Positions 3,374-46,914 of a stretch of 64,000 nt of DNA are shown here, one piece after another. The first letter of the stretch is position 1. Every line of letters begins with the position of its first letter. The notes beneath the pieces are model-generated. The model was not told the origin of the DNA, did not search any database, and saw only the letters and a list, made by a program, of their open reading frames with translations. Source of the stretch: Bilabrum cf. latius. Its lineage: Eukaryota. The stretch lies in NCBI GenBank assembly GCA_965178125.1, contig OZ237759.1:186001-250000 (forward strand), given 5' to 3'. A program made the position numbers and the translations under genes.

Positions 3374-4693
3374 ATGGACTCTTTAGAGCATACATCAACG
3401 CATGGCAGCTCAAGTGGTGCAATCGATCCAGCTGACGGCGTTGTTCGGAGTGTGCTGGAAGCCAGGAACGGCGGGGCCGGAACGACCGAAGAGCGTATAG
3501 CGGCGGCTGGAGGTGCCCATTTCTACCATTACAATTGCTCAGGAGAATGTGATGAGGGATGGGGATGCTGCTACCGCGCATGCTAGTCCATGCTGCACGG
3601 AGCGAAAGGGAGCGTGCTGTCGATCAAAAACATTCAAAAACTCCTTGCGAGCGCCCCAGAAGCAGCTTCACGAGGCTGGAGTCAAGATTCCGTTGGAAGC
3701 ACGAAATGGATGGAGCCACCAGACGTAGCTATTGTGTTGCGGCTCCGTGGCCTTCCCCCTGGCACCGAAATGCTCGAATGGGACGCCAAGCTGCCTGCAG
3801 CCAACGATCCAATGGGCAAACGCGCCGCTGGCCAGCTATCGAGCGCACTAGAAACCGTATCAAGCAACCTGTGGCAAGTGCTGTGGTCAGACGAGAAAGA
3901 AAAGTCGGGTAGGCCAGTTGATGCCAAGGAGTCTGGTGTGGTTGCGCCAGCGGTGATCGATGACGGGACATTCGCATACACGGTGGCTGCCATTCGCGAG
4001 CGGCCCCCGTCGGCTGGACCCTCTCCCCGCTGCAGAGGCAGCCCGCTTCAGGCTCTCGCCGGCATGCTGCCAGCGGGCGGGATTGGTCGCACCCGGTGGG
4101 GCCCAGATCTCCATGCACTGGCACTGGCAGTCGGGAAGGAGGACCCCGACCCCGAGCTGGCCAAGAGGCTGGACCGCCTTGGCCGCACGGAGATCCTTGT
4201 CTTGGACACCCATTACACGAAGCGAGTGGACGCAGGCGCTTTCGATCCCCCAGAGAGCCGTGCAGGGCCGGGGCTTGAGTCAGCCGCGGGGCCAATGGGG
4301 GGGGCTGCTGCGAGCGACTTGAAGGGCGACTGCGGCTCAGCGAGCAAGGCGATTACCAGTGGTGTCGACCCGAGCGTGGCTCATTGGGAGCAAATAACCC
4401 CCGAAATAGAGGGCGGTAGGAGTGGGGCTGTCGCCGCCACTGGGGAGGCGGCTGCGGGTGGGGCGAGTGGGGGCACGCCAGTGGTGGAGGCAGAGGTAGG
4501 CGAGGGCAAGTCGACGGGCGAAGAGGCAGAGGAAGCGCCTGGCACGCCCGCCCCGAAAGCAAATGTGTCAATTCTGGGCCAGCAGGGAGTATCCTGGGTC
4601 TCCCTACCCGCTTTCCTGAGCAGGAGCAGGTCATCTCGGTGGATGGGCGCGGGTCTTCGGAGAACTGCCGCAGGAGCAGGGGCTTCATCATGA
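3374..4693 (+). CDS. Ufm1-specific protease (peptidase C78, UFSP-like)
   Basis: HFYHY..DEGWGCCYRAC[TAG 3584]SML matches the family YHY..D.GWGCxYRxxQ catalytic-Cys motif. ILVLDTHYT corresponds to the LILDPHY Asp/His motif. ORFs 3374..3586 and 3590..4693 are in frame. Ends TGA. Confidence 0.85.
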
Positions 4694-9875: not shown

Positions 9876-9949
9876 TGAGCTCCGATCGCCATGTGAGGCA
9901 TTTTAGGTGGGCGGCCACAGTGGGCCGGTAAATCGTCCATCAGCGCAAA

Positions 9950-11942: not shown

Positions 11943-14900
11943 TCACCCCAGCGGGAAGTGACAGCCCGCGGCCTGCGAGGCATACACCCACGCTATCCCC
12001 TCACCCCCCACATTGGGGTCAGCTGCAGCGGCTGGCGCTCCCAAGGCCCCGCCCACACCCCTAGGTCTACCAAGCTGCAGGGCCCCCACCCCCACACCCG
12101 CCCGCGCCCCCAGCCCTCCATCCAACCTCCGGCCCACCGCAACACCAACACCAGCTCCAGCCCCGGCACCTGCACGCGTCCTCTGCGGTCGTGCCTTGGA
12201 AACATGTTCGCCGCCCCTGCGAGCCCCGCCCCCCACGTTGGGGTCAAACGCCTCGATCCCCTCGATGAGGAACCGCGACACGAGCCTCCTGCGGCCGTGC
12301 GCCGCCCTCTGCTTCCAGCTCTGCATGCACCGCCGCAGGAGTGACAGCCTCGAAGACCGCTGCACCTTGGCCTCCAGCAACAGGGCTCTCTTGGCAGCCA
12401 GCTCCCTCTCCCTCCAGCTGCGAATGCCCGCCTGCACCCCAGCGAACTCCTGCGCAGTGAGGGCGAGGGTGCCCCTCGCGCCCCTGCCGCGCACTGCAAG
12501 CACACTGCCAGCCGCTGACCGTCCAGGGAACAAACCCCCTGAGCCGCTCCTGTCGCCCCCCAAGCCCAGGCTTACCCCGGAGTCCACCGTGCCCCCGTTC
12601 ATGCCCCCGATTCCTTCGGCCAAGGTCCATCCCCCCGTCCTGGTGCTCAGGCTAGAGGCCCTGGCCCCTGGGGCTAGCGGCCTCCTGGCTCGACCATCGA
12701 TGGCGTCGCCCACCTGAGCAGACCGGGGGCGGGGAGCCAGGGGGTCTCGTCCTCTGCCCCTCGGAGCGGATCGGCTGCGCTGGCTAGGCCCTCCCTGGCT
12801 TGGCCCTCGCTGGCTAGGCCCTCGCTGGCTAGACCATCGCGCGGCAGATGCCCTTCTTTGCCGGACCCTGGCTTCATGCACCGTCGCGGACGAGCCGCGA
12901 GCGAACAGGTTCGATCCAGTTTCTGTGCCATCCATGCCCCCGTCCTTGCCAACCTGCTCGATGCCCACGCCCACGGTCACTGTCACGGGCAAGGGCCGGA
13001 ACTCGAAGGAGGGTCCGCCTCGGTGCACGCGACGGGCCGCATCCACAGCAGGAGAACCTCGCCCCGCATCATCGTGCAGTGCACCCAGGGCCCTTACACG
13101 GCCCCCGATCGAGGACTCCCACGGCGCTGCCTCCTTCACATGCCCCTGCACAGCCGCCCCCCTGGCCGTCGTGGATCCACCGGTCTGTCCTCGGGCCATC
13201 GCAGCAGCGTCGTCCACCGAGTGCAGTCCGATCTCATCCTCCTGCTGCATGCCCCCATAGGCCCCCGCCAGCGCTCTGACGGCAGCAGCGGCACGAGAGG
13301 TCTCATCCGCCCTGCGCATCGCTCTCTCAACCGCCTCGCGGCGCGCCCGCTGGCCCTCGCCCTCGGCAGCACCGTCCACCTCTCCTCTCACTGTGTGCTA
13401 CATGCGAGCCAAGCCCCGCCGCAGCCTGGCTCCCCGCCCCTGCAGATGCTGGGCCGCGTCATCGCGCGAGTCCGTCTCCCCGCGAATCGTCGTGCGCCCG
13501 CTGGACAGCTGCCGCCGCCGAAACTCAACGGCTAGTTGCTACCTCCTTCTCTGCAGAGCCTCAATCTCGGCCACTGCGCGCCAAGTGCGCAGAGGCCCGA
13601 GGCAGCGCCTCCTGCGGGCCATGCGGCGAGCCCTGTGAAGCAGCACCCAGGCACGGAGCACATGCCGCCCCATTCGGGTCTCCCCTCGCTGCACCGCATG
13701 CTCTTCCACGGATTTTCTGCGGTCAGCAGCCTGTGACGCGGCCTATTTCCAAGCTCGGAATGCGGATCTGCAAGTGCGCAGTGCATCCCAAGCGGCTGCG
13801 GCCTGCTCCGCGAGGTCAGGGGCAGGGGCAGGACCGGGAGCAAGACCGGAGCTGCGACTCCCTTGGTCGTCCGGCTCCGTGCCTGGGCCATACCTGCCGG
13901 GATCGGGACCGCTGGTGCTCCCCCACGGATTGTGCTCGATGCTACCACTAGTAGGAGCAAAGCCCCGCGGGTCTGTGCCCTCGCCCGGCTCTCCATAGCC
14001 CCGTTGACCGTGCTGGGCAGAGGTCTTGCCCGCATCGCCAACATCGCCTGCATCGCCGCCGCTCTCCTCAACCCAGCTGCCCGGCCGAGTCGGGGGTGCA
14101 CTCCCTCTGCCGCTCTTTCCGCCGGCAAATCGGGAGCCGCGGCTGGCTGCATGCCCTGCACCTGGTCGTGCTTCGTCACCCGGGGCAGCTGGGAACTAAC
14201 CGCTGCTGCCGCTGCCGCTGCTGTCGCCCACCCCTCCTTGAGTCAGTGCTCTTCGCATCGGGGCCGCCACTCCGCTGTGCCCAGCTCTCGAGCGGATGGA
14301 ACCAGTCCCTTTGGCACCGGGTCTCAGTGCGGCCGTCACGCCACCCGCCGATATGACCGACACGGACTCGATGGAAACAGCGGACCGGTTGCTGTCACCG
14401 ACACCCCCGTGCCTCGACCGAGACCGCATCGAACCGCCAGAGAGAGACACGTTCAGCTCCGACTCGGCCTCTTCATCGATGGACTGCAGCCGCGACCGGA
14501 AGCTCCGTGCCGCACGCTGCCTGCCTGACCACTGCATATGCGCCACGCTGCCCCTGGCGCTGCCCATGGATCGAGCCGAGGCTGAGTGGCCTTTGCGCGC
14601 GCCCCACCCCAGACTTGCTGCTCCCACCTCACGGCTTGTCCCACTATGCTCTTCATGTCCAGATCCACTCTCTGGTGCTTTTCCAAACTGGCCATGACCC
14701 GGCCCGCCCTCATCCGACATTCCGGTGCTGGATCGCGGGCGCCCCCTCCACGCACCTAGCCCCGCGGTCTAGTGTCCGAACCCAGACGCACTGCTCCCAC
14801 CCATCTCCATATCTATCGTGGCACTGCTCGGTGCCCTTCCGAGCGGATTTCCAGGAGATGCACCCAGCCGGAAGCTCATACCGCTGCTGGCACGAATCAT

Positions 14901-17900
14901 GCGGCCCCGCACAAGAGCAGACTGGGGTACTGCAGCAGCAGCAGCGGCAGTGCCAGCTGCGCCCGCGCTGCTACCCGCCGTCGACCGGAAGCTGTGCCTC
15001 CCCACCCGCGCACCGCCACCCATGCGCCCCATGCTCCTGCCCCCCATGCTGCGTGCATGCAGCGGAGGCCTGCTGGCACCATGCCCGCGAGGAGGCCCAC
15101 GCATGCTCTTGGCTCCATGGACTAGCACCCCGGCTGCATTCTGGCGTGTGCTGCTGGCACGCTCTCTTTGTCCTCGCCCTCCCATGGACTCCGCCGAGCT
15201 ACCCTCGCTCCCCGACTCTTCGACCACCTCCAGCTCGTCCACCCAGGGCCCGAGCGACGTAGCCCCCGAGCCTTGGGATCCAGCTCCAGGGCCCGCAAAA
15301 CTGACCGACCTCGCCGCGTGAAATCCGCTCCGAATCCGCTGTAGGGCTCCTATGAGCGTGGCAGCTGAGGGCATGCGCCGGATGCCGGGGCCTGCCGATC
15401 CCGGTCCCGACCTGGACCCCGACCCGGCCCCTTCCTGCATGGCTCGTCCTTCGTTTTCCTTCCCGCCATCCGGCACATCCTCTACGCCGCTGCCCCCGCT
15501 CCCGCCCCCGATGGATCCCATCACCCGGCGACACGCCTCCATCCCCACGGCCGTGCGGCGCTCCCACTCCGACGAGGCTCCGTCCGCCGCGGCGGCAAAC
15601 CACGCCCGGAGCACCTTCCGGAGCTTGGCATGCCGACCTCCCCTTCGCACCGCTGCGTGCCGCTGCAGCGCATGCAGAGCTCTGAGCATCGGACGCTCCT
15701 CCCCAAAGTGACGCCGGAACAGCTCGATCTTGGCCTGCCTCTGCCTTGTCCTCACCGCCCACACCCGCAGAGCCCTCGCCGCTCGCCCCCTGCGCCTCGC
15801 CTCTCCCACCTTGCGAGTCGCTACGGCTAGTCTCCAGTCCCGCACGGCCCCGAGCAATGCCCACGCCCTGTGGTAGGCCCCTGCAGTCTCCTCCAGCGCA
15901 CTTGCCCTCCCCCTCTCGCGCTCCTCCGCCGCCCATCTCCGCCACCGCGACAGCACTGCATGCGCCAACTCCACCGATCGATCCGCCGCTCGCCCCTGCT
16001 CCTCGAGCCAAAGCCTCGACCTACCCGCCCACCCTTCCAGCACCCGTTTCAGCAGCAACCGCTTCCGAAGCTTGGATCGCCAGGCCGCCACGCACTGCCC
16101 CGCGACCCTGCCCTTGCCGATCGTAAATGCCGCCTCGCCCGCCCGACGGAGCGCGATCGTGCGCTGCACACGCTGCCTCCACCGTGCCACAGCGGCCGCC
16201 GCCCTCGCTGCACCCGACTACTGCCCCACGGCTTCTCGCAGCTGACGAGTGGCCGCCCTCCCAGCGGCCCATTCCTTCCATCGCCTCACAGCGGGCTTGC
16301 AGTGGTGCTTGGTGAACACCCGCCTGGCCCTGGCCCATGCTGCCCTCCTGTACCCCTCGGCGTTCACGCGCATGCGTCGCAGCGCCCAGACTCCCAGCAA
16401 CATGTGCCTCGTGTGTTCCCTGGCTGCACGCACGGCTGTCCTGATCCTCCTCTTGTACCACCGCAGAAGGGAGAACGACCGCCGCAGCGCCACCAGTCGG
16501 TTCGTGCGGCCCATGCGACGGGCCAGCCGACGCACCTCCACGACCTGTCGCAGACCCTTGAAGGCTCGCTGCGAGGCGTCTCGCTCTTCGGCCGCCCTGG
16601 CTAGCACTGCAATGGGATGCAGCTAGTCAATGGCGCACACCTGCCTCAGTCTCCGCACCAGTGCGGCTCTCTCTCCCGACACTGGGCCCATGGTCTGTGT
16701 GAGGCCGAGCAGGGAGGCCCAGTCACGCGACTCACCCGGAGGATGCTGGATAGAGACATGCGACTCGTTGGCATCTAAATCCCTATCCTCAACCATGCCA
16801 GCCTCCACTTCTCCGCCTCCGATTCCGGCGGAGAGCACCACCCGCGCCTGCTCCCTCCACGCTGCCTCCACGGCCCGCCCGCCTGCAAGCATGGCTGCCC
16901 CCATTCGACCAAGGGGAAAACCACCCCCAAAGCGGTGGACTCGCACCACAGCGGGAAGCTAAGGAACACATGTACCGCGCTCATCTCCAGACCAGGACAC
17001 ACTGCTGCCACCAACCTCCACATCATGCCCCTCCAACACCCTGAGCACCCTTGCCGCTGCCCCCTGCAGCGAGCCCCCCGCCACGTTCTAGCCCCACGTG
17101 TCGAAGCCCATGGCGCCTGGCGATGCATCTTCCAATCTAGCTCCCCGCTGCCTGGTGGCTTCCATCCCTTGCACCACTGCCTCGAGGCCGAAGCACTCCA
17201 CCAGAACTCTGTGCCACCTGGGGTGCACCCCCCGCACGAGTCCCCACCGCCGGGCCCTGGTACCCCGCACCCGTCCCGACAGCCAGAAGGACCGCCACCG
17301 AGACACCCCGGTGCCGCCCGCAGGACCCGCTGCATAGTCCTCGGGCAGACCCAGCGCGGCTCTCACGCACCGCCGCCCGCGCAGGGATGGAGGGGGAGCG
17401 CCCGTCTGCAAGAGGCCCGTGTCACTGCCTGACGCCTGCAAGCTGCGGGCTCTGCCCGTAGGGTCCCGCCGCGGTGCTGCCGCTACGGCCCACTGCATCC
17501 ATAGCGTGGTGCTTCGTTCCTCTTCCTCGTCTTTGTCTCCGGTGAGAGTGGCAGCGGCTGCGCACATCTGCCGCAGTCGTGCATCGAACCATGGCCCAGC
17601 GGTAGCGAGTGCAGCCCGGGCCCCGCGCTGTGCTCTGTCCTGCGCGTGCCCCACGGCGTGCTGCCGGGGCACGTATGGGGTCAACCCCATGCTCAGCCGC
17701 GCACGCAGCGCAGCCTGCCGTTGCGACCAGTCCAGAGACACGTCGAGCGCAGCCGTCACGGTGCTCATCAGCCGCCCGGCGACTCCCGCGCCCTTGAGGG
17801 CCCACAGTGACCTCTCGCCCCGGGCGAGCAGCTGATGCGCCTGCCGCACCAAGTCCGCGCACTCGGCGCGCAAGCCAGTGTGTCGGAGAGATAGGCATGC

Positions 17901-20900
17901 TGAGTGAGAGTGGGGCGCACGGGGCATGCGTTTTCGCCGTCCCATGGCCCTGCCGGCATGCTTGTCCAGTGTGGAGAACAGGGACACCATCTCGCCCTCG
18001 CTCTGCGTGCTGCCGCGGGTGCGAGTGACGAGCCGTGGTTCTGCTGCATCCTCCGCCTGCTGGCTATCTGTTGCTTCTGCTCCTGAAGACATGCCGAGCT
18101 CCACCTCCGAGCCTGCCGCCGTTGCTGCATCATCTGAAGAGGATGCTCCCTTGCCGACATCCGTGCCTGCCCCCCCTTCCGCTCCATGCTCCTCACTACC
18201 CAGGCCCACAGAGCCCCCGAGCGCCTCGCTCGGGTCAGACAGTTGCGCTACAAGCACCGGTGGAGACCTGCTTGAGGTCGGGCCAACCCGCCTGCCTAGC
18301 CGAGCCGCGATCATCCCGCTTCGTGCGGCTGCTGCCTTCCATCCCATGAAGCACCTGGCTCTCACAAACCCGTCGCGCCACATGGTGGCGGACCTGCAGG
18401 CGACTCGAGCAGCCTTGCGAGCCAGCAGCACCGCCCTGAGGCCCCGCAGCGCGCGTCCGAGCACTAGCCTCCGCCCCGATACCGCCGCCAGCATCTCGTA
18501 CCTCTGCGCCCGGCGTGAGGCCATGCTGTCCTGGTGCCAGGCGCGGACTACCATGCCCGCGAGAGACACGATTGCGGCTGCCTGCAGCTGGTTGGCTGCC
18601 GCCACTTTCGCGCGACGCACCACAACGCCGTGCGCCATCACGCACATCGCCGCTGCCTGGGTCAAGGCCGACCGCAGCCGACTGGCAGCCACAGCGCCCC
18701 GCAGTGCGATGCACCTGACCTGCGCCTCCCCAGCCAGCGCAAACAAACAGGCCCTCTGCCTGCACGCGGCATCGAGAGAGGCCAGCATCGCCGCCCGGAA
18801 CCGTGTGCCCTGCCACACGGCCACAGGCCCAGCATGACGAGCCGCAGCAGCGATGCCGTCTGCGCCTTCGCCGCTCGAGCAAGGGAGCGCAGCTGCTGCC
18901 ACCTCGGCCTGCTGCTGCCTCGCGGACGCTGCCATTCGATCGGAATCATGCCTCACACGGGCCCTGGCTGCATCTGCAATGGCAAATTTAACGTGAGTGG
19001 ACATGGGTGGGACCTAATTGCCCGCACCGTGTTGGTCACGCAACGAGGAGAGGACCGCCTGGGGAGCGCGGGCTCGACCAGCGAGAAAAGGCGACCCGAG
19101 CCCTTGTGGCGGTTTGCTGGAGCCGCTCTGCAGGTCGCTACCAGTGCCAGCGCCCCAGCTCCGCATGTGCGCGGCCACGGGGGCCAACGCCACCTGGACC
19201 GCATCGGGTGGGCTGGACCACGCGGCGGAAGGCAGCGCCTGGCCGTACCCAGCGATGGCATCGCCCCAGGGAGAGGCGGGTGCAGCTGCCCCTGCATGCA
19301 TGAGCGGCTGTGAAGCATCCCTCTTGGCAGCATCCAGCACCTCTTGCTCCCTGCCGTCGTGCGGTGCAACCGTACGAGCCTACGCAATAGAACTGTCCTC
19401 GGGTGGATCCAATGCCTGGGTCTGCGCACGTAGGCTGCGGAACAGCCGGCCCAGGGCATCCCCAGAGACAGGCCCTTGGGCACCATTGGGGCTAGCGGAG
19501 CCGTCCTCAATCCTACCACCACCTGCGCCAGGCGGCCCATCGCCGTCAGCCGGCAGATCCGACCCGCCTGCATGCCCGGTTCCGTGCCCCTGTGCCTGCA
19601 AGCGCCGTTCCTGCGCCGCTGCCACCCTCGCCACCCTCGATTGCTCCCTGCGCAAGGCGGCTTTGGCCTACTAGCCCCGCCTCCAGGCAGCTAGTGCAGA
19701 CCGACGGGCACCCATCCGGACCACCCGAGCGGCATCCCTCATCCAATGCAGCGCAGCTCCTCTAGCGTGTCGGCGGATAGCAGCGACAGCCACGATGCGG
19801 ACAGCCGACGCGAACGCGCCTGGATTCGGCAGCTACAATCTGGTTGAGGTAGCACCGACATGGGTGCTCACTGCAAGCACCACAGCATGGAAGGCGTATG
19901 CCAAGCCCGCCGCGCAGCGCTGCTGCCACCAGACCGTGCACGGGTTGACATCCGACGCGGGATGAAAAGTGGATTCGGTTGACAGCAGGTGCGCCCACGC
20001 TCGATCCACGGTGTCGCAGCATTGCTGGTGTTGTCGTGACGAAGGCCGTCTGTCCGGACCCCCAGGAGCCACGACGCCCCTACAGCGCAGCCTCTTTGCC
20101 AGCCAAGCTTCCAGCTGTGCCCTGCCATCGTGCGCTCGCAGCAGCGAGCGAATACTTGGCGACGAGGCAGCGCGCCGAACCACATCACTGAACGACCCGC
20201 GAGCCGGTAGGATGGGCTCGCTGGGACTTATAGCCATATCCTGTGCACCGGTGGCGGATGCTACCGCCTTCGCGAGAAGCCTGTTGCACGCCGATGCGCA
20301 CCGGCGGGAGGACAGCTGACTCAAGTGCGGGATAGCCTCGAGCAAGTCAGAAGCGGTGACGGCTGAAGTGGTCCGTAGTGCGCTAGAGAGCGTCGTGTAG
20401 GGTTGATCTCCCGCCTGTGTCGCCCTCAGCATCCTGGACGCAGCAGTGCTCTCCTCCCTGGACGGAGTGCAGGCCTCGAGCACTGCTTCACTCGACGAGG
20501 GCAGGCCCCGGCTCAGGCCAGCGCACAGCTCTCTCCGCCCGTGTGCGCGGGTCTCTCCACCCTGGCCAAGCAGCGCGGGCAGAGCCACTGGCCGCCCGGA
20601 GGTGTGCCGACGAGGTCTTGAGGGCTGGCTGGTCACAGTCCCTAGTCTGTGGGCATTCCTGGCCAGTAGGCTAGCGGGATGTCCTGCTGCGGATCGCTAC
20701 GAGGGTGGCACCGGTGCAGCAGGTCTCTCCGCTTGAGCCCGTGCCCAGCCATCTCGAGTGCTGCCGCGCGGCCATGACTTCCTCCTTCCCTTCCCTCGTG
20801 GGCGGCTGCTACCCGCACCCGCGCCCTGCAGCCGCTCCCCATCGCTGGATGTAGGTGCCAACAAAGACCGGCGAGTACCCCAGCTCGCGCCTTCATTTCC

Positions 20901-22259
20901 ACCGTGCGTAGGTCTCTCCGACAGACTAGCACGCCGAGCATGGCTCGGGCCGCTCATACCCCCTGGAAGGTCCACCCCCTCCACTCCGCTGTGCCCCTCC
21001 TATCCAAGAGTGTTGGCGGCATCTTGTCGGCCGGATGAAGCGATTTCCCCCCTCCTTCGATTGCTGCCCTGCCTTCGAGTGCTGGCACCGACAGATCTAG
21101 ATCTCCGCCCGAAATCACGCCCACTTGCCCCTGCAGCGCTCCACCTTGCATCTGCTGCTCCGCGACCTGCTTTCCTCTTGCCCGCGCGAGCGCCTTTGCC
21201 CTATCCTGTACGTGTGCCCTTGTCAGCGCCACCACAGCCACTGGCCTGACCACCCTTTGCCCGATCCATTTCGGACACACCTACCTGCATCCCCAGTGCA
21301 GTGCACCTGGCCTCCCACCCCGCCCTCCTGCGGCCGGCTGCTCGGCTGATCCGGGCGACGTATCCTGCCGGCAGCCTGCTGTCGTCAGCAGTTGCACTCG
21401 GGCCCTCTGCTTCTCCTTCTCCTTCTCCTTCTCCTCGAGCCTGGCCCACGCCTGGACCATGTTCGCTCTCAGCTGCACCCTCAGTTCCACCACTGCTGCT
21501 GCCAGCCCCGCTTCCTCTAGTCCCTGGTAGAGGCAGCCACGCGGCCCATGCTCGCCTGGCACTCCGCGGACTGCCTGCCCTGCCTTGGGCCATCCCCGGC
21601 TGGCGCTGCATCGAGTGGCGGCGCAAGCCCTCTGGTCCACTTGAATCCAATGAATCTGCGAGCCGACGCATCGGTTTGGACGGCTCAGCCACCGGGTAAT
21701 CAGGAGCGGCAGAAGGACCCCAGGGGGCTGGCTTGCCTTGACTGGGTTGAGCTTGCTGTGGCAGGGTACCCTTCCATCGGAGTCTCTGCGCCTGCTCGCC
21801 CGTAGGGGCATGAAGTGGGGCGTGCCGCCGACCGTCTCCAAGAGGCGTATCGAAAGCAGCATCAGCGAGCATCTGCTCCCTACGGCTCGCGGGGCGGCAT
21901 TGCGAAGTGTCTCTTGCTGGCTCGATGTGACCGGAGGGCTGCGCCAAGGCTTCAATCCCTGGCTATATGACTGATGGCGTTAGTCTACGCCAGCCAGTCG
22001 GCGGCTGCAGCGGGGTGATTGGGGATAGGACCATATCGTCGCCCCCCGCAGCAGCAGCATGCGCTCTTGTGCTTTCGCCAGCATCAGTTCGGTGAACAGA
22101 GCCCGCATCAGAGGTTCCCGAATCGCTTGGATTACTAATTTCGTTGGCATCAACGGACTAACCGTCAATACTATCCACTGATACTTCGTCGAGAAATGCC
22201 TCCAATGTTGCGCCAGTATCAGGCTATCCAAGGCCTAGAACCGGAAATCCTGCGCTCAT
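11943..22259 (-). CDS. Giant Sfi1-like (centrin-binding repeat) protein, ~3438 aa, apparently intronless
   Basis: Eleven track ORFs share one minus-strand frame. The junctions checked are TAG only (~20, including tandem TAG TAG at 19668-19673). ATG at 22259 after AAA, TGA at 11943. Many Arg-rich ..L..W repeats (CRSAFRAWK, VLRAWF, CVAAWR, CFMGWK, LRRCMQSWK). Confidence 0.7.
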
Positions 22260-22477
22260 TTTCGGCAAATGGGATATATTAACAACACTAACAATGCAAA
22301 TTATTCAACACGCGTCTACATCATTGGCCTACACGTGATGTTTCACCGCTTTTATTCGAATCGGGAGCAACGGCAAGTGAGCTGAGCTGGTTCCGGTTAT
22401 TGTAGACAACGCATTTGGGGTGTCATTAATGAGCCCCAAAGCCCCTCATTCACCCGTTGATGCAATTAAGCATGCCA

Positions 22478-27479: not shown

Positions 27480-29186
27480 ATGATACATGGCACGGATCAT
27501 GCAATTTTGATACTTCGAACGATCCGCCGCTCAATCGTCGGAGCTCTTGCCGACTTGAGCGGGACTGTGCATGTCGATTCGAAGCTTGTTGGGGGCTCTC
27601 AGAACGCGATCCGATGCATTGCACGGCATAAACTACCGGTGCACTTTTTAAGTAATACGTCAAAGGCGCCAGCCTCGGCTATAGTCAGCTAGCTGAGATC
27701 ATGCGGTCTCTCGGGCATGTCTACCACCAGCGTAACAACCTCACTGACTGCAACAAAACGCTTGATAGAAGCAGAGAAGCATAGGGCACTACTGCTTTTA
27801 AGCGATTCTGCATTCACAGAATTTGAGGATATCGAGGGGTGCGTATTGGCTCCAAAGTCTGGCCAGGAGGCTCCGTCAGACGGGGACCTTGCGAACCTAT
27901 CAGCAGTGGTTGTTGGCCTTGCGCCGGACCGGTTGCACTACACCGCACTAGATGCTGCCATGCGGGTACTGATTGGATGCGACAGCAACTCGTCTCCAAC
28001 GGCAACGCGCCCAGCCCGTAAGCTGTACGCCTGCCACACAGGCACCCACCAGCGCGGGGCAGACGGCTCCCTACACTTGGGCCCCGGCCCGTTCGTGCGC
28101 GCCCTGGCAGAAGCAGCGGAGGCTGCCGGCTGGGGCAGACGAGAAGGCGAGTGTATTGAGGACAATCTCCATGTAGTGGGCAAGCCGTCTCTGGCTTTCT
28201 TTCAGGCCGCTGTGGCCAGGCTAGGCGATCAGTAGTCGGTGGCCAGGTTAGGCGATCTGTAGTCGATGGCAGACGGAGACGGAGGTTGCACCGGCACCGG
28301 GGCACGCGATAGGGCTCCTTGGTCGGATCCCCGGGATGGCGCCAGGGACAAAAGTGATACATCCACGCATACAAGTGGAAGGCAAGAGGCGAAGGAGAAG
28401 GAGAAACGTCAGGGCGGGACGTAGGCCGAGGAGGAGGAGGGTGGAGTAGCTGCAAAGCGGAGCACTAGTCATGAATCAAACTCTTCTTCTGCAGGAGGCA
28501 AGGGGTATGCAGCGACTGTGGGTGCTTCGATGGTTCCGGGCCCTGCCTCTGTCCCCGTGGATGCAGCACCAGCTGTGGCGCCCCTGCCGCACGTGATGAT
28601 GATCGGCGACGATGTGCGGCAGGACGTGCTGGGGGCAGTGGAGCATTCGGGTGCGTTGCGGTGGCGAAGTGGCGGCGCTGATGAGTCCGGTAGCGGGAGC
28701 AGCTGTGGCTCTGCCCTCGGCATGGTGGGGGTGCTCGTGCGAACTGGCAAGTACCGAGGCAGGGCAGGCGGTGAGGATGTGCTGGTGGAGGAGGCCAAGA
28801 GGAGGGCGAGAGAAGGGAAGCACTGGTGGCCTGTGCTGTCCCTGCGGTGGAGGGGCTCGGGCGTGGGAGAGCCTGGTGTGGGAAAGCATGGTGTGGGGGG
28901 TCCTGGTGCGGGGGAGGACGAGCTAGCGGCAGGTGCAGGTGCATGCAATGGACTTGCAACCGAGGCGAAATCAAGCGCAGATGCTGCCAGTGGGAGTGGG
29001 AGTGGGAGTGGGAGTGGGAGTGGGAGTGGGAGTGGGAGTGGGAGTGGGAGTGATGCAGGTTCCGCTGGTGCTCGCCCGATCCAGATTTCAGCTGAGGTGC
29101 TTGTCGAGGGACCTGCAGATTGGAGGCATGGGGCGTTGGTGGTGGCTGATAGCTTTGAATAGGCGGCACTAGCTCTGGTGTAGTGA
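27480..29186 (+). CDS. HAD-superfamily IIA phosphatase (HDHD2/LHPP-like) with low-complexity insertions
   Basis: Motif I ADLSGTVHV, FLSNTSK, VVVGLAP, LGPGPFVRAL, VVGKP, MIGDDVRQDV and VLVRTGKYR lie in one frame across TAG 27690, 28233, 28260, 28422, 29160 and 29181. Ends TGA. Start codon uncertain. Confidence 0.85.
28212..28265 (+). repeat. 27-bp tandem duplication inside the HAD CDS
   Basis: gtggccaggctaggcgatcagtagtcg / gtggccaggttaggcgatctgtagtcg; each copy carries an in-frame TAG. Confidence 0.9.
28989..29051 (+). repeat. (AGTGGG)10 microsatellite encoding a Ser-Gly linker
   Basis: Perfect hexamer run within the HAD reading frame. Confidence 0.95.
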
Positions 29187-29350: not shown

Positions 29351-32300
29351 ATGGCATCGCTATCCCCAGAGCACTATGTATTTCACTACATTATCGCTGG
29401 GATGGCTCTCCTTACTCTTGTGCTGTCGCTGGTAGACCGTTTTATGGACCCTACCGCAACCACCGACTCTCCTCGCATAAACCTTGGACCAGTTTGGTAC
29501 TGCATATCTGGAGTGCTATTTGCGTATTCATTGTTTTCATTGTGTGGTGCGTTTGGATGGAAGAGCGATTAGATAAGGCTCTTTCTGATAGCGTCATCGG
29601 TTGCGAACGCTGCTGTGAGCACGTGATATACTGCATACAAATTACTCCCCCAGAATTGCTTGTTAACAATGAGCGCCCCATTATGGTAATTTGATTGACT
29701 TTTATTTGCGCAGGCCTTTTCATCGCTCGTGCACCTTGCAGCTGGGGCATCTTCGAGCCGAATAATCTTTGGAGAGCCAAGCCTAGCGTAGCAATGGCTG
29801 TACAGCGCTGCATCCGTCATGAGCATCGGAAATGAGATAACTATCGCATTTAATTGCAGGAGGCGCAGATTACTCGGTATGTTGCTCGCTGGGCTGGGGT
29901 TGTGGGCGATACCGCTTATTTAGGCATATCCAGTCCATCCGTCCTTTGATGTGTTGATGATAGTAGCTCCATGCATAGCATTCCCCATGTCGACTGTATA
30001 TCTCCTTTTGGAAGCATTCAGGGATTATTTGTAGTGGGTGGATGAGGCCTTGGACCCGTACATGTCGTGGACATTTGAGACTGGCTGCTGTCGAAGCCGC
30101 ACCCCTACACGCGTGGCTCCGAATGTGGCGAACTTGAACTCACCACCAGGGGGCATCGCAGTCTAGCGGGATACAACCAGCAACGGTGATCACCCTCGTG
30201 ATGGTACCACCCGCCAGAAGGATGCTCCCGCCGCTACTCGGCGGCCCAAGGAGGCAACCGAGCTGGACGCGGATCCGCCAATGGCACCAGTCGGCCTGCC
30301 TCACTTCTTGCTTGCCCTTGGAATATTGTTTGGAACGATATACACGTATTCGTTCCATGCACCGAGGTCATTCGGTGTATCTTTTGCAGTGACCGAGTAC
30401 ATCTGCGTGGTATCGGCTGCCCTGTTCGTGATCTCAAGAGGCGCGCTGGCTCTGACAGTGCTGCGCAACGACGTGATGACCGTCTCTATGCAGGCAGCTG
30501 AGTCGCAGAAATGGAAGCGAGAAGCCGCCGATGCCCGCCTCAGCACCATCCAGCAGTTCACCAGGTACATCTTCCACGAGGCCCGGGTGCCTCTTCAGGC
30601 GGTGTCTCTGTCGGTGCAGGAGCTGCGGGAGAGCCTGAAGGAGATCCGCGAGCACGACAGAAAGATGCAGAGGGCGCTGCAGGCCACCTAGCAGCTAGTC
30701 CACCGCGAATTTGGGACGGACCCTGGAGCAAGCAGGGGCGCGGCTGGGCTCCTGGCGCGGCTGGCTGAGCTGGTCTAGCTGCGCGGAGAACTGGGTGGCA
30801 GCTTGCACGACGCCAAGGACGTGCTGATGTCCTAGCAGCAGGGGTGCAAGGGGCTGCAGTGCATCTTCGATGACGTGCTCGAGGCCCATCGCATTGAGCA
30901 GGGCAGGCTCAAGCTGAGACAGGAGACCGTGCAGATGGCGCACGTGCTCGCCGACGTCGAATCCACGTTCCGTCGCACAGCAGTGAGGAATGGGCTGTAG
31001 CTGGATACTAGCATCGCGGACGATGTCCCTATGGCGATTAGAGGAGACTCTGTCCGGATCGGCCAGGTCCTGTCCAACATGATCTCCAACGCGCTCAAGT
31101 TCACCCCGACCGGCGGACGTGTGCACGTGCACGTGGTGGCTTCAGGCCTCAGGGCTGCTGATTGGCGTGGACACCCAAGCGTGGAGTACGGCAAGGAAGG
31201 AGACGAGGCGGTGGAGTACGTCGGCTTAGCCATTCGCGTGCAAGATACCGGGTGTGGGATCTCCCAGGCTGATTTGGCCCAGCTATTCACGCCCTACAAG
31301 CAGGCCAGGCACGGCGAAAAGTACACGGGGTCCTCCTCCGGCCTGGGTCTGTACATATCTCGCGGGATCGCTCGTCAGATGGGGGGTGACCTGAGAGGCT
31401 ACAGCGAAGGCGAAGGGAGAGGCAGCACGTTCCTCTTCGAGTTCGAGTCATAGGTGCTGCCAAAAGCGTCCAGCGGGAGCGGGTCGGGATCTGGTGCACT
31501 AGACACAGGGATGAGGCAAATGACCTTGATATCAGCCGCAGGATCGGTGGCCCCAGCGACTGAAGAGGAGGATGCTGCGGACGAGCGGCAGCACTCCCAC
31601 CTTGAGCTGCAGCCCATCTCGGAATCAGTCGAGGTCCGATCCTCGGCGGGAATGGCGTCATCGCTCGAGTCTCACTAGGACCAACATCAGGACGATGAGC
31701 GCGTGCATCGGCAAGATGGCACGTCTCCCTCAATGCGTCCCTTGCCAACCTCGCACGATGAATAGGGAAGCACATAGCCGGGCAGCATGGAAGAACGCAG
31801 TCGCAGTCAGTACCAAACCCCGAAACCAGGCTAGACGAGGAGTCAGCTCCGCCGAGTGCGAGGCCGGGGCCGGGTCAGCTAGGAGCGGGAGGCTGCTCAT
31901 GCCGAACAACATGTCGCAGTGGCAGCAGAGTCGCGACTTACCACTGCGCGGGGCGGTGTGACTGCTGGTTCGCTGGATGTCGGCGATGGCTTGCGCGGCA
32001 GCACGGCAGCAGCAGCCAGCTCGAAATCCAGGATGCGTTCCGGCCAGCATACCATGTCACCACCTCTGCATGAAAGGACACTGCCATCGGTGCACAGTGA
32101 TCCACACTCCAACCAAGCAGCCGATGCCGCTGTGGATAAAGGTGAATCCACTCGCGTGGACGCTGTGCGAGCTCGAGGTGAACGGGATCGTACATTGGAC
32201 AAAGTACGGGCTGACCCCAACAGACCGACGGGCAGACACAGCGACGAGGCCCGGCCTGAAGCCAGGATGGCGGCTGGTACTACTGGGGCTGCATCGGCGG

Positions 32301-32737
32301 CTTGTGCTGGCTCTGGTGGCGATGCTCCTCGCCGCGACGCCGATGCACTCAAGCAGTGGTGCCTCGTCGTGGACGATGTGGGCGTCAACCGTAAACTGCT
32401 TGCCAGGGGAATGCGAAGGCTGGGCTATGCAGTGCACCAGGCAAAAGACGGGAGCGTGGCGGTGGAAGCATGCCGGGCACGCGCCGCCGATGCTGGGCCT
32501 GGCGTTCCTTGCCTCGGTCTCATCACGATGGACAAGTCGATGCCCGTGATGGACGGCGTGGAGGCGACACTTGCGATCCGAGAAGAGTTTGGAACTCGGT
32601 TTGTGATTGTGGGGCTTACCGGGGATGCTTTGGGTGAGGACCTCGTATCGTTCAAGGCAGCCGGGCTGGACGATGTGCTGAGCAAGCCGTCCAGCGCCAA
32701 GGACATGGATAGGGCAGCCCGTGCGTGCGTGCCGTGA
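29351..32737 (+). CDS. Hybrid histidine kinase (multi-TM rhodopsin-like sensor + HisKA + HATPase_c + receiver), ~1095 aa; intron 29615..29713
   Basis: H-box IFHEARVPL, N-box QVLSNMISNALKFT, G1 VQDTGCGI, G2 SSGLGLYIS and receiver VVDD..MDKSMPVMDG..LTG..SKP. One frame across 15 TAGs after removing a GTGAGC...GCGCAG 99-nt intron. About 8 hydrophobic N-terminal segments. Ends TGA. Confidence 0.88.
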
Positions 32738-40890: not shown

Positions 40891-43549
40891 ATGGACGGAG
40901 ACTACGTGGACTTGCCATAGGCTGAACTAGATATGCGTCGCAAGCTATTGAACAGCTTCTAGTCAGCATCCGGACCTGGTTCGTGCGTCCTGACAGCGGA
41001 TATGTTTCGGGATCTTGTAGCTGCTGCAAACCTCACGGTGGGGTCCCCAGAGCTAGATCGCGTCGTGCTCGAATGCAAAATAGACCCGAGTGGATCCGTG
41101 AGAGTAGGAAAGCAACAGGCCTAAACTTCTCCGTGCAATGCATACGCAGTTGCCTCACACCTCTACAAGCAGCTGAGACCCGGCAGTGTGCTGGGCATCG
41201 GCTCCCGCAATTTGTCGCATCGTCAACGTCACAGCGCGTTGTGTTCATAGTATTCTCCAATTGCAGGTGGACTTCTCTGCGTTCAAGGCGAGCGTGCTTG
41301 CCGTCGACGAGAAGGTGGAGCTCACTCGCCGGCAGGACGAAGCGGTGCAGCAGGCAGAGCGCAACGCCGGTATTGGGTCATCTGGGGGCGCAACAGGCAT
41401 GGGCGCTCGAGGCACGTAGTTTAGGGAAGCACTCGAGTCTGCCACTGGCCGCCACCAGTCGAGCGACCGTTCCTCGGTGCCCGCCGAACTGCTCGCTCTC
41501 CCTTAGCAACAGAGGGTCCGCCGGCTCACGCGGCAGATCTCTTCCCTGTTCTCGGAGTACGACAACGGGCGCTGCTCCCTAGATGTGTTCCGCGAGCGGC
41601 TGCGCCAGCTCGGCGTGGACGAGACGGAGGAGTTCCGCAGGGCCCTTCGCATGCCCGCCGACCTGACCTTCGCCACACTCTTCAGGGCGCTGTGCACCGC
41701 CGACGCGGCCCCAGCTTCATCGGCGGGCGCGCCCTCGGCCAGGGGGACCGGAGGCGCGCGGTCCGATCTGCACATGCAGGTGGGCGCGGGCCGGTCTGTC
41801 CCCTCCGCTGGCAGGCGGCTGGGACCCCCGGGGGGCCGCCGTGACTCTGACGTCATCTCGTGGCGAGGCTCGAAGGAGTCGTACGCCGCGAGGGAGGACA
41901 AGGCCTCTCCCGCTGCCAGCGGGCACAGGGCCAGGGCACACGGGGCCTACAGCCAGCTCGGCGGGCAGGGCGCGGGTGACGCGGTCAGGATGGGGACGCC
42001 GATGGGCGGGCCAGGCGTGGGCCAGGGGCTGGCAGCCTCCTCCTCCACCGCAGCCTCCTCCCCGGGAGCGGCCTCACAGGCCAGCGGGGTACCAGGACGT
42101 GCCGCTGGTCGGGCTACCGGCGAGGGGCAGGTGTCGTACTCCACGGGCAGGTACGATGCGCGCGCGATGAAGGAGTCGGGTGCGGGCGCCGTGATCTTCG
42201 GGAGGGGCACGATGGCGCCGGGCGCTGACAGGCACGGAATCAGCGTGTCGGGCGGGGTGACCATGCACCATTCCATGAGCAGTCAGGCGGGCCAGCGGGC
42301 GGCGCAGATGGCGCGCGCCACCCAGGGGGGTCGCGGGGTGGCAGCCACTCTGGTGGACGACGCGGACAAAGCAAGGGACGACGCCCGGTGGGAGTCGCTG
42401 GCACAGGCCCAGGCCAGGGACGTGGTGCGCGGCGCCGGCATGGTTCCGTAGTCGGGCGTGGGGATGGCCCCCACGGCGCGGGCGGGGCACGGTCTCCCCG
42501 ACAAGGGCCTCCTCAGGGAACAGGTGTACTCTCTGGTGCGGCAGCTGGACAAGGGCATGCTGACTGCGGCGGGGTTCCGCGCCCGGGCGGCGCAGATGCA
42601 GATCGCCATCCCCCCCGCAGTGGACAAGCTGCTCTTGGACTTCGAGGCGAACGGGCGGGCGGACTTTGCCCGGTACGTGAAGGGTTTCGAAGACTACCTC
42701 CACGCGAGGGCCAGGGAGGCAGGGGCGGCGGCAGCGGCGGCGCAGGCGCAGGAGGGCGTGCCTGTGGGTGCGCGTGCGGTTGAGACGGCCGAGGAGCGCC
42801 GGGAGAGGGAGGAGAGGGACGCGGCCGCGGGGGCTGCGGCTGCCGCCAGCGCGCGGGGCCTGGGGCAGGTGCAGAGCGCCACGCGGTCCCACGGTGATAT
42901 CATCGGGTGGCATGGAGGGGCCGCTGAGAAGGCGGCCAAGGAGGAGGAGGAGTCCTTGCGGAAGCGGGGCCTCAGGCCGGGCATGCAGAGGAACACGGCC
43001 CTATGGAATGCCGCTGCGACAGTTGGGTCGGGCAACCCGACGGGTGGCGGGTCTGCGGCAGACATGGGCACCATTCTGGGGCCGGCTTCGCTGAACGCCA
43101 CGGGGGGGCTCCGCACCACTCGCAAGGGCAAGGGCCCAACCAGCATCGCGGACCGGAGCGCGGGGAACATCATCGCGTGGGCCGCGGGGGCACCTCCCTC
43201 GCAGGGGCCAGGGCAGGGCATCCCGGCCGCGGTACTGTCGCCCAGCGGACAGGCCCCCGCCCATGACCGGGCGACGCTGATGGCAGGCGTATCTGGTGAC
43301 CCCGGATACACGGGGGGGGGTCCCCAGGGCGGGGACCTCCTGCCGGATGGGAGGCCCGTCGGCAAGGGGCGCGCGCACGTCGACTCGGAGCTCGGGCGGC
43401 TGGCCATGGCGAGGGGCCGCGCGCCGTTCGGCACGGAGAAAGATTTACCACACAAGCCTCAGTATGAGAGAGGGGCCGACGGAAGGTATCACAGGGTCGT
43501 CTCGCCGGCGGGAGGCGGGCGGGGCCCGTCTGCGGGGCACCGCGGCTGA
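40891..43549 (+). CDS. Uncharacterised protein with degenerate EF-hand-like modules; intron 41098..41266
   Basis: One frame across TAG 40918, 40960, 41417, 41504 and 42449 after a GTGAGA...TTGCAG intron. Three similar modules: IDPSGSVDF; YDNGRCSLDVFRERL..LTF; LDKGMLTAAGFR..NGRADF. Ends TGA. Confidence 0.55.
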
Positions 43550-43580
43550 GGCTGCGGTAGTTGCCCTTGCTTCGCAAATA

Positions 43581-45113
43581 GAGGCCCCGCACAGAACCTG
43601 AACGAACCCGAATCTGAACAGTTTTCCTGTACCCCGATAGAGCAGGTTAGCGAATATGAAACGGAGTGTAAACGCCAGAACATATTAAATACTTCATATA
43701 GTATCTTAATTGTGGGTTTGACTGGCGACTGTCATTCATACAGGCCTAGGATTGTACGGTGTCCAAGAATGCAACGCAGAAGGCGATGCTCCCTTTATCA
43801 AGCGTTTTATCGAGGCTATACTTAGTTTGAATGAGAAATATTAATAAATACTACCATCTAAAGCTAACGCGTTGTAAATTGACGCCTAAAGGCTTAATAT
43901 AGTGCACTTCTCGTGATAGGTGTTTGGCCATGCACGGACTGCCCTTGACGGTCATCACTTTTTGCAATTCTGCGGACGCGACGGAGGTGTGTTTGCACCA
44001 ACCTGCAAGATACGTCCAATTAGTGTGTTTTTACAAGGCATGGTGTGCTCTATAAGGCGGGGATGCTGAGCTAACTGCATATTTTGTCAGCGGTCGCATC
44101 AAAATGGCGTGCAAGCTGGCACAGGCTGGGCAAGCCGCAGACTTCTGGTACGCGTGATTTCTTGGTAAATTAGTAGTATCAAATGTATACAATGTAACGC
44201 TGAGTCCTTGGTGCAATTTTGTCGAGTTGTAACAGGTATTGAAATCCTGGGTGGAGAGCCAATGCTGGCTATGGCAGCCGTATTGATGAATTTGTGCATT
44301 AATTTGGAATGGCGTGATGATTGTGCAGCATCTAGACTTTAATCTTCCTATTTATGCTCGTGTAGGTATGTTAGATACATGGGATCGAGAGAATCGGCCA
44401 TGCAACCGTAGCACGCGGTCAAACTGGGCGATTGCAGCCGTTAAAAAGGCAGCCCCGGCAAGTAATTGTGTACTGAAAGTATAAATTGAGAATGATTACT
44501 GGGTTTCCAGGACGCAACTGTGAAAACGAGAAGAGGAAAGGCCGTTTTGTTGTAGGGCAAGCTACTGGCGATCCCGAAGAATGTGGAGGATTTCGACTGA
44601 GAAAGTTGCGTATAGGGGTGGCCAGGTGCTCATTTGTATTCTCAATACTTAAATATACCTACTCACTAAGTGCCGGAGTTCTTCGCTTGTCCAATGGTAT
44701 GATATCATAACAAGTATGTGTTTCTGAGGGGGGTGTTCAGGGTCCCTCCGCGGCTGGAAACGACCTTTATGGCGCCTACGGCTCATCTAGTTACAAAGCA
44801 ACGTTTAGCAAGTATATCCTTCATGCTGTCTTGCATAAAGAAAGAGGGTAGGAGTACGGCAGGCTGCTACTTCAGCAGTGATGCTCGATTGAAAACAAGC
44901 TTTTTGTCCGTTGTGCCTGCAAGTTTTCCCTTGTGTTTGGGCTGCGATAACTTTCGTTGTACTTGACTCTAGAACAAGCTGAAAATCGCATTAATTAAAG
45001 CTCCAGCCCGCGCTCAAAGCAGCATATTCGGTCTCTTTCCTAGAAGTTTCCTTGAGAAGAATCAGGGAAAACTAAGGAGGAAGGTTCCCCGTTCAGGTTC
45101 CGTGCGGGGCCTC
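43581..45113. mobile_element. Non-autonomous TIR DNA transposon (1533 bp), TA-flanked
   Basis: 24-bp TIRs gaggccccgcacagaacctgaacg (43581-43604) and its inverse at 45090-45113, with one mismatch. TA on both flanks. The AT-rich interior contrasts with the GC-rich host genes; no long ORF was found. Confidence 0.85.
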
Positions 45114-45430
45114 TATACGATGTTACTAGCAATTAGAAAACTATAATTTTTGGGGCTCCCTGTCATTTTGTAAGTGCAACCATGAATCGATGCAAGTGGG
45201 TCTCGAGTATGATTTGCAGCGCAGGCACACTGTCGAACAGGAAATCGGGCATGTCCAAGTACCAAGACACGGCAATCAAGCGCGCGTAGCGTTTGCAATG
45301 CTTTGACACACACAGGTGCCCGATCGGGTAACCCTGCCCATGCAAGGCACCAAAGAGGGTTCCACCAGAGAGACGGACCTTGCCTCCTTGGAGCCACGCC
45401 ATCACGTCACACAAATGACGGCCTGGCCGC

Positions 45431-46914
45431 TCACAGCTCCTCGTCCTCCTCATCGGCGTCCTCCTCCTCCTCGTCCTCCTCCTCCTCGGCGGCCTTGCGC
45501 GCCTCCTCCTCGGCCTTGCGCTCTTCCTCGGCCTTCTTCCTCTCGGCCTCCTTGGCATCATCGTAGGCCTTCTTCTCGGCGTCCTTGTTTGCCTCGAACG
45601 TCTCCTTGGCGAAGGCCTCGGCCTCCTCCACAGAGTCAGTCACGATGATGTCGTCGAAGATGGTGCCGGCCTTGACCTGCCACAGCTCGAACGCGACGTT
45701 CGTGCAAGGGTTCTCCTTGGAGCAGACCGCGTACACGTTCTCGTCCTCCTCGTAGTCGGGGTTGGGGATCTCGGGGTGCACCCAGGCGCCCTTGTAATCG
45801 GGGTTGTCGATCATCTTGGGGGACCACTCGCCCTTGTAGTCGGGGTTGTCGATCATGGGCGCCTCCCAGTCCCCGTCCTCCTCGTCGTCCCAGTCCTCGG
45901 GCTTGGCTGCCTCGGGGTCGGGGATCTTCTCCGGCACATCGTCCCATCCCTCGGGCTTCTTGTCCTCGGGGTCGGGGATCTTGGCCTCGTCTACCCAGTC
46001 CTCGGGCTTCTTGGCCTCGGGGTCCTTGATCATCTTGGGGGCCAGGAAGTCCCAGTCGTCGAAGAGGGAGCCGCTCTCGACCTTGCTGCCGTCGATCTGC
46101 ACCTCGTACGTGTTGTCGGGGCTCACGATGAACGTGTAGCGGTGGGACAGGTTGTCAGTCTCGCACCGGATGCTCTTCTTCGTCAGCAAGTTCTTGCCCT
46201 TGTACGTGAAGATGGCGTGGGTCTTGCGGGTGGAGGTGCCGCAGACGTCGGGGCCGAACATGATGGCGTACTCGTCATCGCCGCCGAACTTCTTGGGGTC
46301 CTTGATCTTGGGGGTCAGCTTGATGTAAGCGCCGCCGCAATCCAAGTTCTGCTCGTGGCGCACGGTGTACGAAAGCACGAGCTTGTTGCCCTCAGACACG
46401 AACTCGGTGTCGAGCGGGGCCGAGGCCGAATAAAAGCGAGCATCCTGGCCGGTCTGGATCCCGACATTACTCGAGTCCGCGAGGTTCTCGGCAAGCTTCC
46501 ACTCTCCCATCTGCAAAAAATAGACAATAAATTATTTAATTAGTGCAGAGGTCACTGCCAGGCCATTGTGCGGTGGTGCCCCACGTTGGCATCGCCACGT
46601 GGCTGGAGCGGGCCAGCCAACCGCAACTGCGACGCAAAGCCTTAAACTCACCTCTGAAGAGGACTTCCACTCCGATCCGATGGTCCATCGGTCCTGCCAA
46701 TCAGCTGCGAATACTAGTAGGAGCTGGTACAGGCGTGAGCCGACAATGGCACGCGGCACGACGCGTGGGAGATCACGTGGCAAGGATCCCACGTTGCAGT
46801 CCCTTCGATGCAACCTAGCGACCGCATTCACTCACCGTCGAACGAATCCTTGAAGTATGTCTTTGCCGAAGCAAGAGCAGCAAGACCAGCAAGCACTGCG
46901 AGAACGACGCGCAT
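45431..46914 (-). CDS. CALR: Calreticulin; exons 46914-46836, 46704-46652, 46510-45431
   Basis: Signal peptide MRVVLAVLAGLAALASA; IQTGQDARFY, HEQNLDCGGAYIK, IMFGPDVCG, KPEDWD P-domain repeats, ELWQVKAGTIFD; acidic tail ending DEEL. Two GTGAGT..CAG introns. Ends TGA. Confidence 0.96.

Follow-up and report, generated by a model that had tools for sequence, protein, structure and literature searches.

Nuclear genetic codes in which UAG and UAA differ in meaning are rare. The studies cited here name them in a single fornicate, a single rhizarian, a single genus of green algae and a few ciliates (PMC5304391, PMC11687900). Among these, the fornicate, Iotanema spirale, is reported to have UAG alone reassigned to glutamine (Gln, Q) (Panek et al., 2017, PMC5304391), and McGowan et al. 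(2024, PMC11687900) report the same of Protocruzia tuzeti, Hartmannula sinica and Trochilia petrani. The latter survey also lists UAG alone as Leu in a rhizarian and some ciliates, and UAG as Ser in Scotinosphaera. It gives the better-known code in which both UAR codons are read as Gln (NCBI table 6) for many ciliates, hexamitin diplomonads and some oxymonads, and further for some Ulvophyceae and Amoeboaphelidium protococcarum (PMC11687900). In the I. spirale study, 104 genes stop at UAA and 15 at UGA, with in-frame UAG at 22 of 28 hyperconserved Gln positions (PMC5304391), and the ciliates with UAG-only reassignment are reported to have UAA at 93.5-100% of aligned protein ends (PMC11687900). 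Here we describe a 64,000-nucleotide stretch of DNA from Bilabrum cf. latius (contig OZ237759.1, positions 186,001 to 250,000 of the forward strand; hereafter the window), in which a gene for a cysteine protease of family C78 carries an in-frame TAG six residues past the catalytic cysteine of its GWGCCYRAC motif.

The code pattern that best fits the sequence of the window is NCBI table 15 (UAG as Gln, with UAA and UGA as stops). UAG is in all likelihood a sense codon, most likely for Gln, in nuclear genes genome-wide, and UGA (mostly) and UAA still terminate. Because the organism would decode UAG as sense throughout its nuclear genes, codon 71 of the protease is very probably an ordinary Gln codon, and the gene intact and specifying one protein of 439 residues. 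The parts of this gene that bear on the argument are the following.

3374..4693, forward strand: Peptidase_C78 (UfSP/ZUFSP-type) cysteine protease gene, 439 codons plus TGA, with one in-frame TAG.
3530..3532, forward strand: Tyr53, a conserved Tyr 12 residues upstream of the catalytic Cys, Y in 42 of 44 covering homologues.
3557..3583, forward strand: GWGCCYRAC active-site motif, with the catalytic Cys65 codon TGC at 3566-3568.
3584..3586, forward strand: in-frame TAG, codon 71, probably read as Gln; the column is Q in all 44 covering homologues.
4205..4213, forward strand: Asp278-Thr279-His280 (GAC ACC CAT), with the Asp and His of the triad, in the same frame downstream of the TAG.

A first-pass annotation of the window had singled out the TAG in GWGCCYRAC-TAG-SML and placed it at 3560-3590. 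The triplet is indeed there, and the interval is correct except that it leaves out the G in front and the M and L at the end. Positions 3557-3595 read GGA TGG GGA TGC TGC TAC CGC GCA TGC TAG TCC ATG CTG, which translates as G W G C C Y R A C * S M L (first G at 3557-3559, W at 3560-3562, last L at 3593-3595). Under table 11 the frame falls into two pieces, 3374..3586 (70 residues) and 3590..4693 (367 residues). A stop here would thus do what that annotation said, parting the catalytic Cys at residue 65 of the 70-residue peptide from the Asp278 and His280 of the 367-residue frame. With TAG as sense there is a single frame from the ATG at 3374 to the TGA at 4691-4693, and since the Asp and His of the triad lie in this same frame, the two pieces would form one gene.

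An exhaustive search of 1.84 billion representative proteins with the protease returned 48 hits at an expect value (E) of 0.001 or below, 45 of which were aligned (excluding P0002, with its start at residue 133, and P0024 and P0045, whose matches are confined to residues 146-210). The TAG column is Q in 44 of these and a gap in one (P0003). Around it, at least 43 of the 44 covering homologues keep W63, G64, C65, Y67 and R68, Cys65 being C in every one, and the consensus derived from the 44 is GWGCxYRxLQM. The motif had been said to fit C78 proteases and the column to be dominated by Gln, and both statements hold. Tyr53 would correspond to the oxyanion-hole Tyr of UfSP. Removal of the TAG by an intron was rejected as an explanation: the C-x-Y-R-x-x-Q spacing matches that of all 44 homologues, with no residues missing. 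Pyrrolysine was rejected as well, the column being invariant Gln and the genes eukaryotic.

The Pfam profile Peptidase_C78 (PF07910) gives the same picture. With the TAG as X, the protease scores 37.8 bits (E 1.9e-9) in a 409-residue reading and 38.9 bits in a 295-residue reading, the latter rising to 43.4 bits with Q; all of these exceed the curated cut-off of 29.1 bits. The match spans residues 43-123 and profile positions 5-93 of 200, and the same profile recognises 45 of the 46 sequences in alignment A2. When the TAG was replaced by each residue one base change away, Q scored best of the seven (Q 43.4, S 41.2, L 40.0, K 39.2, W 39.2, E 38.9, Y 38.9 bits), 4.5 bits above X (38.9). A sequence search of the Protein Data Bank (PDB) found mouse UfSP1 (2z84, E 4.1e-4) and C. 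elegans UfSP (5ejj, E 0.012; 5xda, E 0.3), and in all three alignments the X stands opposite Q (GWGCGYRTLQT, GWGCAYRSFQT and, for 5xda, GWGSAYRSFQT).

Downstream of the TAG, D278 is D and H280 is H in 38 of 38 covering homologues, with seven gaps. Asp278 and His280 lie C-terminal to Cys65, as the D-x-H motif of C78 proteases does, and belong to one chain with it only if the TAG is read through. The middle residue of the motif is P in 37 of these homologues and T in one, and the window protease has T; its ILVLDTHYT is weakly paired with FLVLDPHYT of C. elegans UfSP. Other family motifs past the TAG are intact in frame (G108, S109, W112, E114 and P115; P192, D196, D197 and Y202), and the relative P0002 has an identical C-terminus. 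The GS..W.EPPD motif agrees with the majority of the 45 homologues, unlike the solved UfSP chains aligned by sequence. A word-indexed search with the protease gave P0002 as its one match, because low-complexity words dominated, and when bacterial and archaeal genomes were scanned for protease relatives, none of the 131 pattern matches was confirmed.

An AlphaFold model of residues 1-295, read with Gln, has a mean predicted local distance difference test (pLDDT) score of 77.3 and a predicted template modelling (pTM) score of 0.80. A modelled helix, residues 65-78, begins at the catalytic Cys65, as expected of C78 proteases, and includes residue 71. All 12 Foldseek matches of the model to the PDB at E of 0.001 or below are UfSP, UfSP2, UfSP1 or ZUFSP entries, in keeping with a papain-like UfSP fold, and the best is 5xda_A (E 2.1e-5, probability 1.00). 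The template modelling (TM) scores are modest because of the protease's insertions (0.30-0.40 per query length, 0.53 per UfSP1 length). We are fairly confident that a single UfSP-like papain fold, as predicted by the model, holds Cys65, Gln71, Asp278 and His280 in a 439-residue protein. The protease resembles UfSP1/UfSP2 and ZUFSP/ZUP1 (MEROPS and Pfam C78) in its GWGC.YR..Q motif with the catalytic Cys, in the conserved Tyr 12 residues upstream, in the Asp-x-His motif downstream and in its predicted papain-like fold (best PDB matches UfSP 5xda, UfSP2 3oqc, ZUFSP 6fge and UfSP1 2z84). It departs from them in having D-T-H where nearly all homologues have D-P-H, and in insertions at about residues 125-190 and 205-270, which are common only to the window protease and its nearest relatives P0002 and P0003. 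By sequence and predicted fold the protein is a C78 protease with two long insertions, compatible with both the UfSP and the ZUFSP type. Of the label UFSP in the first-pass annotation, membership of C78 therefore stands, whereas the subfamily is narrower than the evidence: by fold ZUFSP (E 1.2e-4) is nearly as close as UfSP (E 2.1e-5), although the sequence search of the PDB finds UfSP1 and C. elegans UfSP only.

Taken by itself the protease site is not decisive, because one C>T change at a CAG codon, a nonsense mutation, gives an identical picture. It is the data from the whole window that decide, and they support the assignment of UAG to Gln. We took frames from stop to stop with TAG as sense, which gave 17 long frames including the protease (16,909 codons; one further frame was excluded as the antisense of calreticulin). 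These hold 101 in-frame TAG, a density of 5.97 per 1000 codons compared with 6.48 for the other two frames; TAG thus occurs at the frequency of a sense codon, close to its out-of-frame density. With three standard stops the longest stop-free frame is 906 residues, whereas with TAG as sense there are frames of 3,454, 1,549 and 1,509 residues; making TAA sense instead leaves frame lengths almost unchanged. Out of frame, TGA occurs at 15 per 1000, 2.3 times as often as TAG, and at that rate frames of 1,000 to 3,454 codons without TGA, as read from the sequence, cannot be attained by chance. TAG is spread evenly along the frames (11, 17, 11, 9, 8, 10, 9, 8, 8 and 10 by decile), and the next base (G 34, C 33, T 20, A 14) is distributed much as after CAG; analysis of position and next base around the 101 TAG revealed neither a read-through context nor use close to the ends of genes. 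A comparison of the window with itself, in search of repeats pairing TAG with another codon, gave 23 non-self matches, none of which covers any of the 101 TAG.

Pfam domains were found in 9 of the 17 scanned long frames (the 16 besides the protease, plus the antisense frame), or in 8 of 16 without the antisense frame. They are eukaryotic: IFT122, ELMO, HAD hydrolase, hybrid histidine kinase, DUF255/Thioredox_DsbH, DEAD-box helicase, DnaJ, piggyBac-type transposase and TLC. The IFT122 frame matches PDB entry 8bda with 408 bits and the next entries with 382 bits, which does not narrow the lineage, and atlas look-ups assign a DDX47-like helicase and calreticulin to Eukaryota at large. With such domains in its long frames, the window is nuclear DNA of a eukaryote. 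Its guanine-plus-cytosine (GC) content is about 63%, and we consider it very likely that the host is a GC-rich eukaryote with few introns.

Of the 17 long frames, 14 end in TGA and three in TAA. If TAA were used in the proportion of CAA to CAG (143:543), about 27 would be expected within the frames. The DnaJ frame ends in TAA, with five more TAA within the next 175 codons of sequence that is not coding-like, and likely start sites have a TAA closely preceding them, as in the frame at 9932, whose start resembles a signal peptide. C-termini common to the window and a relative end at the same TGA-delimited residues. Frame ends, shared C-termini and TAA clusters all point to UAA and UGA as terminators, and, as judged from these frames, TAG is sense and TAA and TGA are stops. 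A code in which TAA is a second Gln codon (table 6) was rejected: it brings no gain in frame length, TAA is absent from coding frames against the number expected, and TAA clusters are non-coding.

Two observations stand beside these. Clusters of in-frame TAA triplets lie between genes, those at 43170-45092 and 46739-49141 being examples, and the region 43600-52000 has a GC content of 0.53-0.56 compared with 0.60-0.69 elsewhere in the window. The HAD-hydrolase frame ends GTG TAG TGA (29178-29186, forward strand), with a second TAG seven codons earlier, which could be a Gln-then-stop ending or the remnant of a tandem stop.

Which amino acid TAG encodes was addressed at sites with informative homologues, above all in two frames besides the protease.

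11943..22304, reverse strand: 3,454-codon frame with 20 in-frame TAG, compared with fragments P0170, P0171 and P0172 of a close relative.
29699..32737, forward strand: hybrid histidine kinase frame with 14 in-frame TAG (Pfam HATPase_c and Response_reg).

The three fragments, found by a word-indexed search with the 3,454-codon frame, are 79-85% identical to it, and opposite six of its TAG codons the close relative has Q, K, Q, Q, E and Q. P0170 terminates exactly opposite a window CAG, and P0171 begins directly past another; this is the pattern that would be expected from exchange of TAG and CAG between two species sharing the code. In the kinase, the orthologue P0050 (44% identical) has Q at TAG codon 379 and D at TAG codon 434. 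Counting each of 13 informative TAG codons once, a BLOSUM62 tally gives Q 33.1, E 25.1 and K 15.3. UAG thus stands opposite Gln in 44 of 44 protease homologues, at four of six sites in the close relative and at one of two in the kinase orthologue, and Q tops the tally. From the 13 informative sites the assignment to Gln is probable. Gln is the best-supported meaning in these alignments and Glu the only serious alternative; we favour Gln over Glu because both the close-relative comparison and the invariant protease column do. No Pfam domain matches the 3,454-codon frame itself, whose composition favours Arg, Ala and Trp and in which 'A..W R...R' stretches recur many times in loose form.

Several points weigh against UAG as Gln or limit the evidence for it. 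The protease column is the only near-invariant column under a TAG in the window. Two of the six close-relative sites are K and E, and kinase codon 434, opposite D in the orthologue, is E, E and P in distant PDB homologues, where codon 379 is A and I. Distant homologues have E, E and Q at codon 117 of the HAD hydrolase, and alignments of DNAJC10 have P, E, E and one gap at codon 74 of the DnaJ frame; one TAG site in the DUF255 frame is opposite K. The absence of internal TGA and TAA from the long frames follows from how the frames were defined, and since these run from stop to stop, some of the 101 TAG may fall in untranslated leaders. That TAG is read through in the window is deduced from conservation, and neither a tRNA scan of the 64 kb, which gave no tRNA gene of any kind, nor an Rfam scan of the same window, which gave no match, adds a decoding component.

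Some of these points would be accommodated if TAG were sense for another residue, most seriously Glu, in which case the protease would carry Glu at an invariant Gln position. E often stands opposite window TAG in distant homologues and comes second in the 13-site tally even when the protease site is removed (23.1 against 28.1 for Q), and codes with UAG as Glu (one ciliate) and UAR as Glu (Blastocrithidia) are described in PMC10553269 and PMC12153298. At 79-85% identity, however, most aligned residues should be identical, and the close relative has Q at four of the six sites and E at one; moreover, its in-frame stop lies opposite a window CAG, the nearest kinase orthologue has Q at codon 379, and in the protease the column is Q throughout, with the Pfam score for E no better than that for X. 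We therefore regard Glu as unlikely. Slightly less likely still is that TAG is ambiguous between stop and sense, or partly read through, so that part of the protease would be made as the 70-residue fragment. Ambiguous codes exist (PMC4967479 and 10.1101/2022.04.12.488043); the TAG before the TGA of the HAD gene could be a real stop, and the frame ends in the window are predicted 3' ends. Yet none of the 17 frames needs TAG as its end, all running on to TGA or TAA. Nor is TAG enriched or depleted towards 3' ends, its next base is as for CAG, and the C-termini shared with the relative are TGA-delimited. With partial read-through, the frame with 20 TAG would also give almost no full-length product unless decoding were efficient.

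The standard code could be kept if the protease TAG were a CAG>TAG nonsense mutation or a sequencing error, in a pseudogene or misassembled copy. The single transition that this takes would look exactly as the site does, and the ATG two codons past the TAG (3590) is what makes table 11 list a 367-residue frame lacking the Cys. We nevertheless find this highly improbable, given that 101 TAG yet no TGA or TAA lie inside 17 long frames, among them IFT122, the DEAD-box helicase, DnaJ and the histidine kinase, when TGA is the commoner triplet out of frame. All conserved motifs past the protease TAG are also intact and in frame, and in the relative the same genes are likewise found as fragments with broken frames. 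Least probable of all, and barely worth entertaining, is U-to-C editing of the mRNA that turns UAG into CAG before standard translation. It would put the same Gln at every site and so be indistinguishable on DNA, but we saw no motif or context around TAG, and we know of no nuclear system that edits about six sites per 1000 codons specifically at TAG, although no literature search was aimed at this point. This leaves UAG as a Gln codon as the reading that we carry forward.

By analogy with other UAG-only codes, UAG would be decoded by a tRNA-Gln with anticodon CUA, derived from tRNA-Gln(CUG), that reads UAG but not UAA, and the simplest source of such a tRNA would be a mutated copy of the tRNA-Gln(CUG) gene. 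This follows the reasoning of Panek et al. (2017, PMC5304391), by which the anticodon CUA lets a tRNA decode UAG and leave UAA alone. The other component would be an eRF1 that has lost efficient recognition of UAG; no eRF1 gene was seen among the scanned frames of the window.

Several further features of the window were noted. In the HAD frame, a short tandem duplication at 28200-28260 (forward strand), SVARLGDQ-TAG and SVARLGDL-TAG, has TAG at the same place in both copies, so the duplication copied the codon along with its coding surroundings. Seven in-frame TAG and no TGA or TAA lie in a frame for a piggyBac-type transposase (DDE_Tnp_1_7; 49242-51146, reverse strand), a mobile element that seems to live under the variant code or to have adapted to it. 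Calreticulin (45431-46531, reverse strand, ending DEEL) and ribose-phosphate pyrophosphokinase (58079-59074, reverse strand) have no TAG at all, and their GC contents at third codon positions (GC3) are the highest in the window (0.91 and 0.82), so highly expressed genes may avoid TAG. Each also lacks the start of its Pfam profile, which suggests an upstream exon, and hence that introns exist in the genome. The TLC-domain (ceramide-synthase-like) frame at 59917-62133 (reverse strand) matches profile positions 1-91 of 198 only; at about codons 300-350 it has some 40 unrelated residues, after which TLC-like sequence resumes, and the break is probably a short in-frame intron or insertion. This frame overlaps that at 62121-63998 by 13 bases (62121-62133) on the same strand in a different reading frame, and the pair may represent two genes packed closely together or a single gene divided by an intron or frameshift.

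If UAG is a Gln codon here, the consequences for annotation are practical. The standard code chops every long gene in the window, and annotation and homology-based binning go wrong unless table 15 is used. Under standard annotation the catalytic Cys of the protease sits on a 70-residue orphan peptide and the rest looks like an inactive protein. In public protein sets the genes of the close relative are likewise present only as fragments. This sister species, with its similarly broken frames at 79-85% identity, would share the code under a broader proposal that we put forward tentatively, judging it somewhat more likely to fail than to hold. It is that a eukaryotic lineage with no described variant code, a GC-rich flagellate with few introns and mainly UGA stops, reassigned UAG alone to Gln independently, and that the change is shared by at least one sister species, is clade-wide and is the first outside the fornicate and the ciliates. 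A more distant relative, P0003 (30-43% identical), may share the code too. It has the protease insertions, and it begins with Met near the residue past the Gln column, its first 12 residues not being reliably aligned; this start hints at a TAG or stop at that column, and we give it little weight.

The literature search, which had subscription journals and supplements outside its coverage, found no further GC-rich non-ciliate besides I. spirale with UAG alone as Gln. If the reassignment is true, a high-GC genome is a setting in which UAG, and not UAA, is the mutationally favoured UAR codon, and a GC-rich genome with UGA as its main stop would put to the test the ideas on how UAG comes to part from UAA, namely a tRNA(CUA) unable to wobble to UAA, and GC pressure. 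The kind of code would already be known, and this instance of it may be new. Compared with organisms that use table 6, the window shares UAG read as Gln and, presumably, a tRNA-Gln with a changed anticodon, and differs in that TAA is not sense: it is found in none of the coding frames, where some 27 would be expected, and it ends three. The likeness to carriers of table 15 is closer, in that UAG is sense on conserved Gln, UAA and UGA end genes and no gene apparently ends in UAG, and the evidence is also of the same kind as in I. spirale, whose in-frame UAG fall on hyperconserved Gln columns. I. spirale and the ciliates, however, are dominated by UAA stops, whereas the window has 14 TGA and three TAA ends at 63% GC, and it is therefore unlike any described carrier of the table 15 code.

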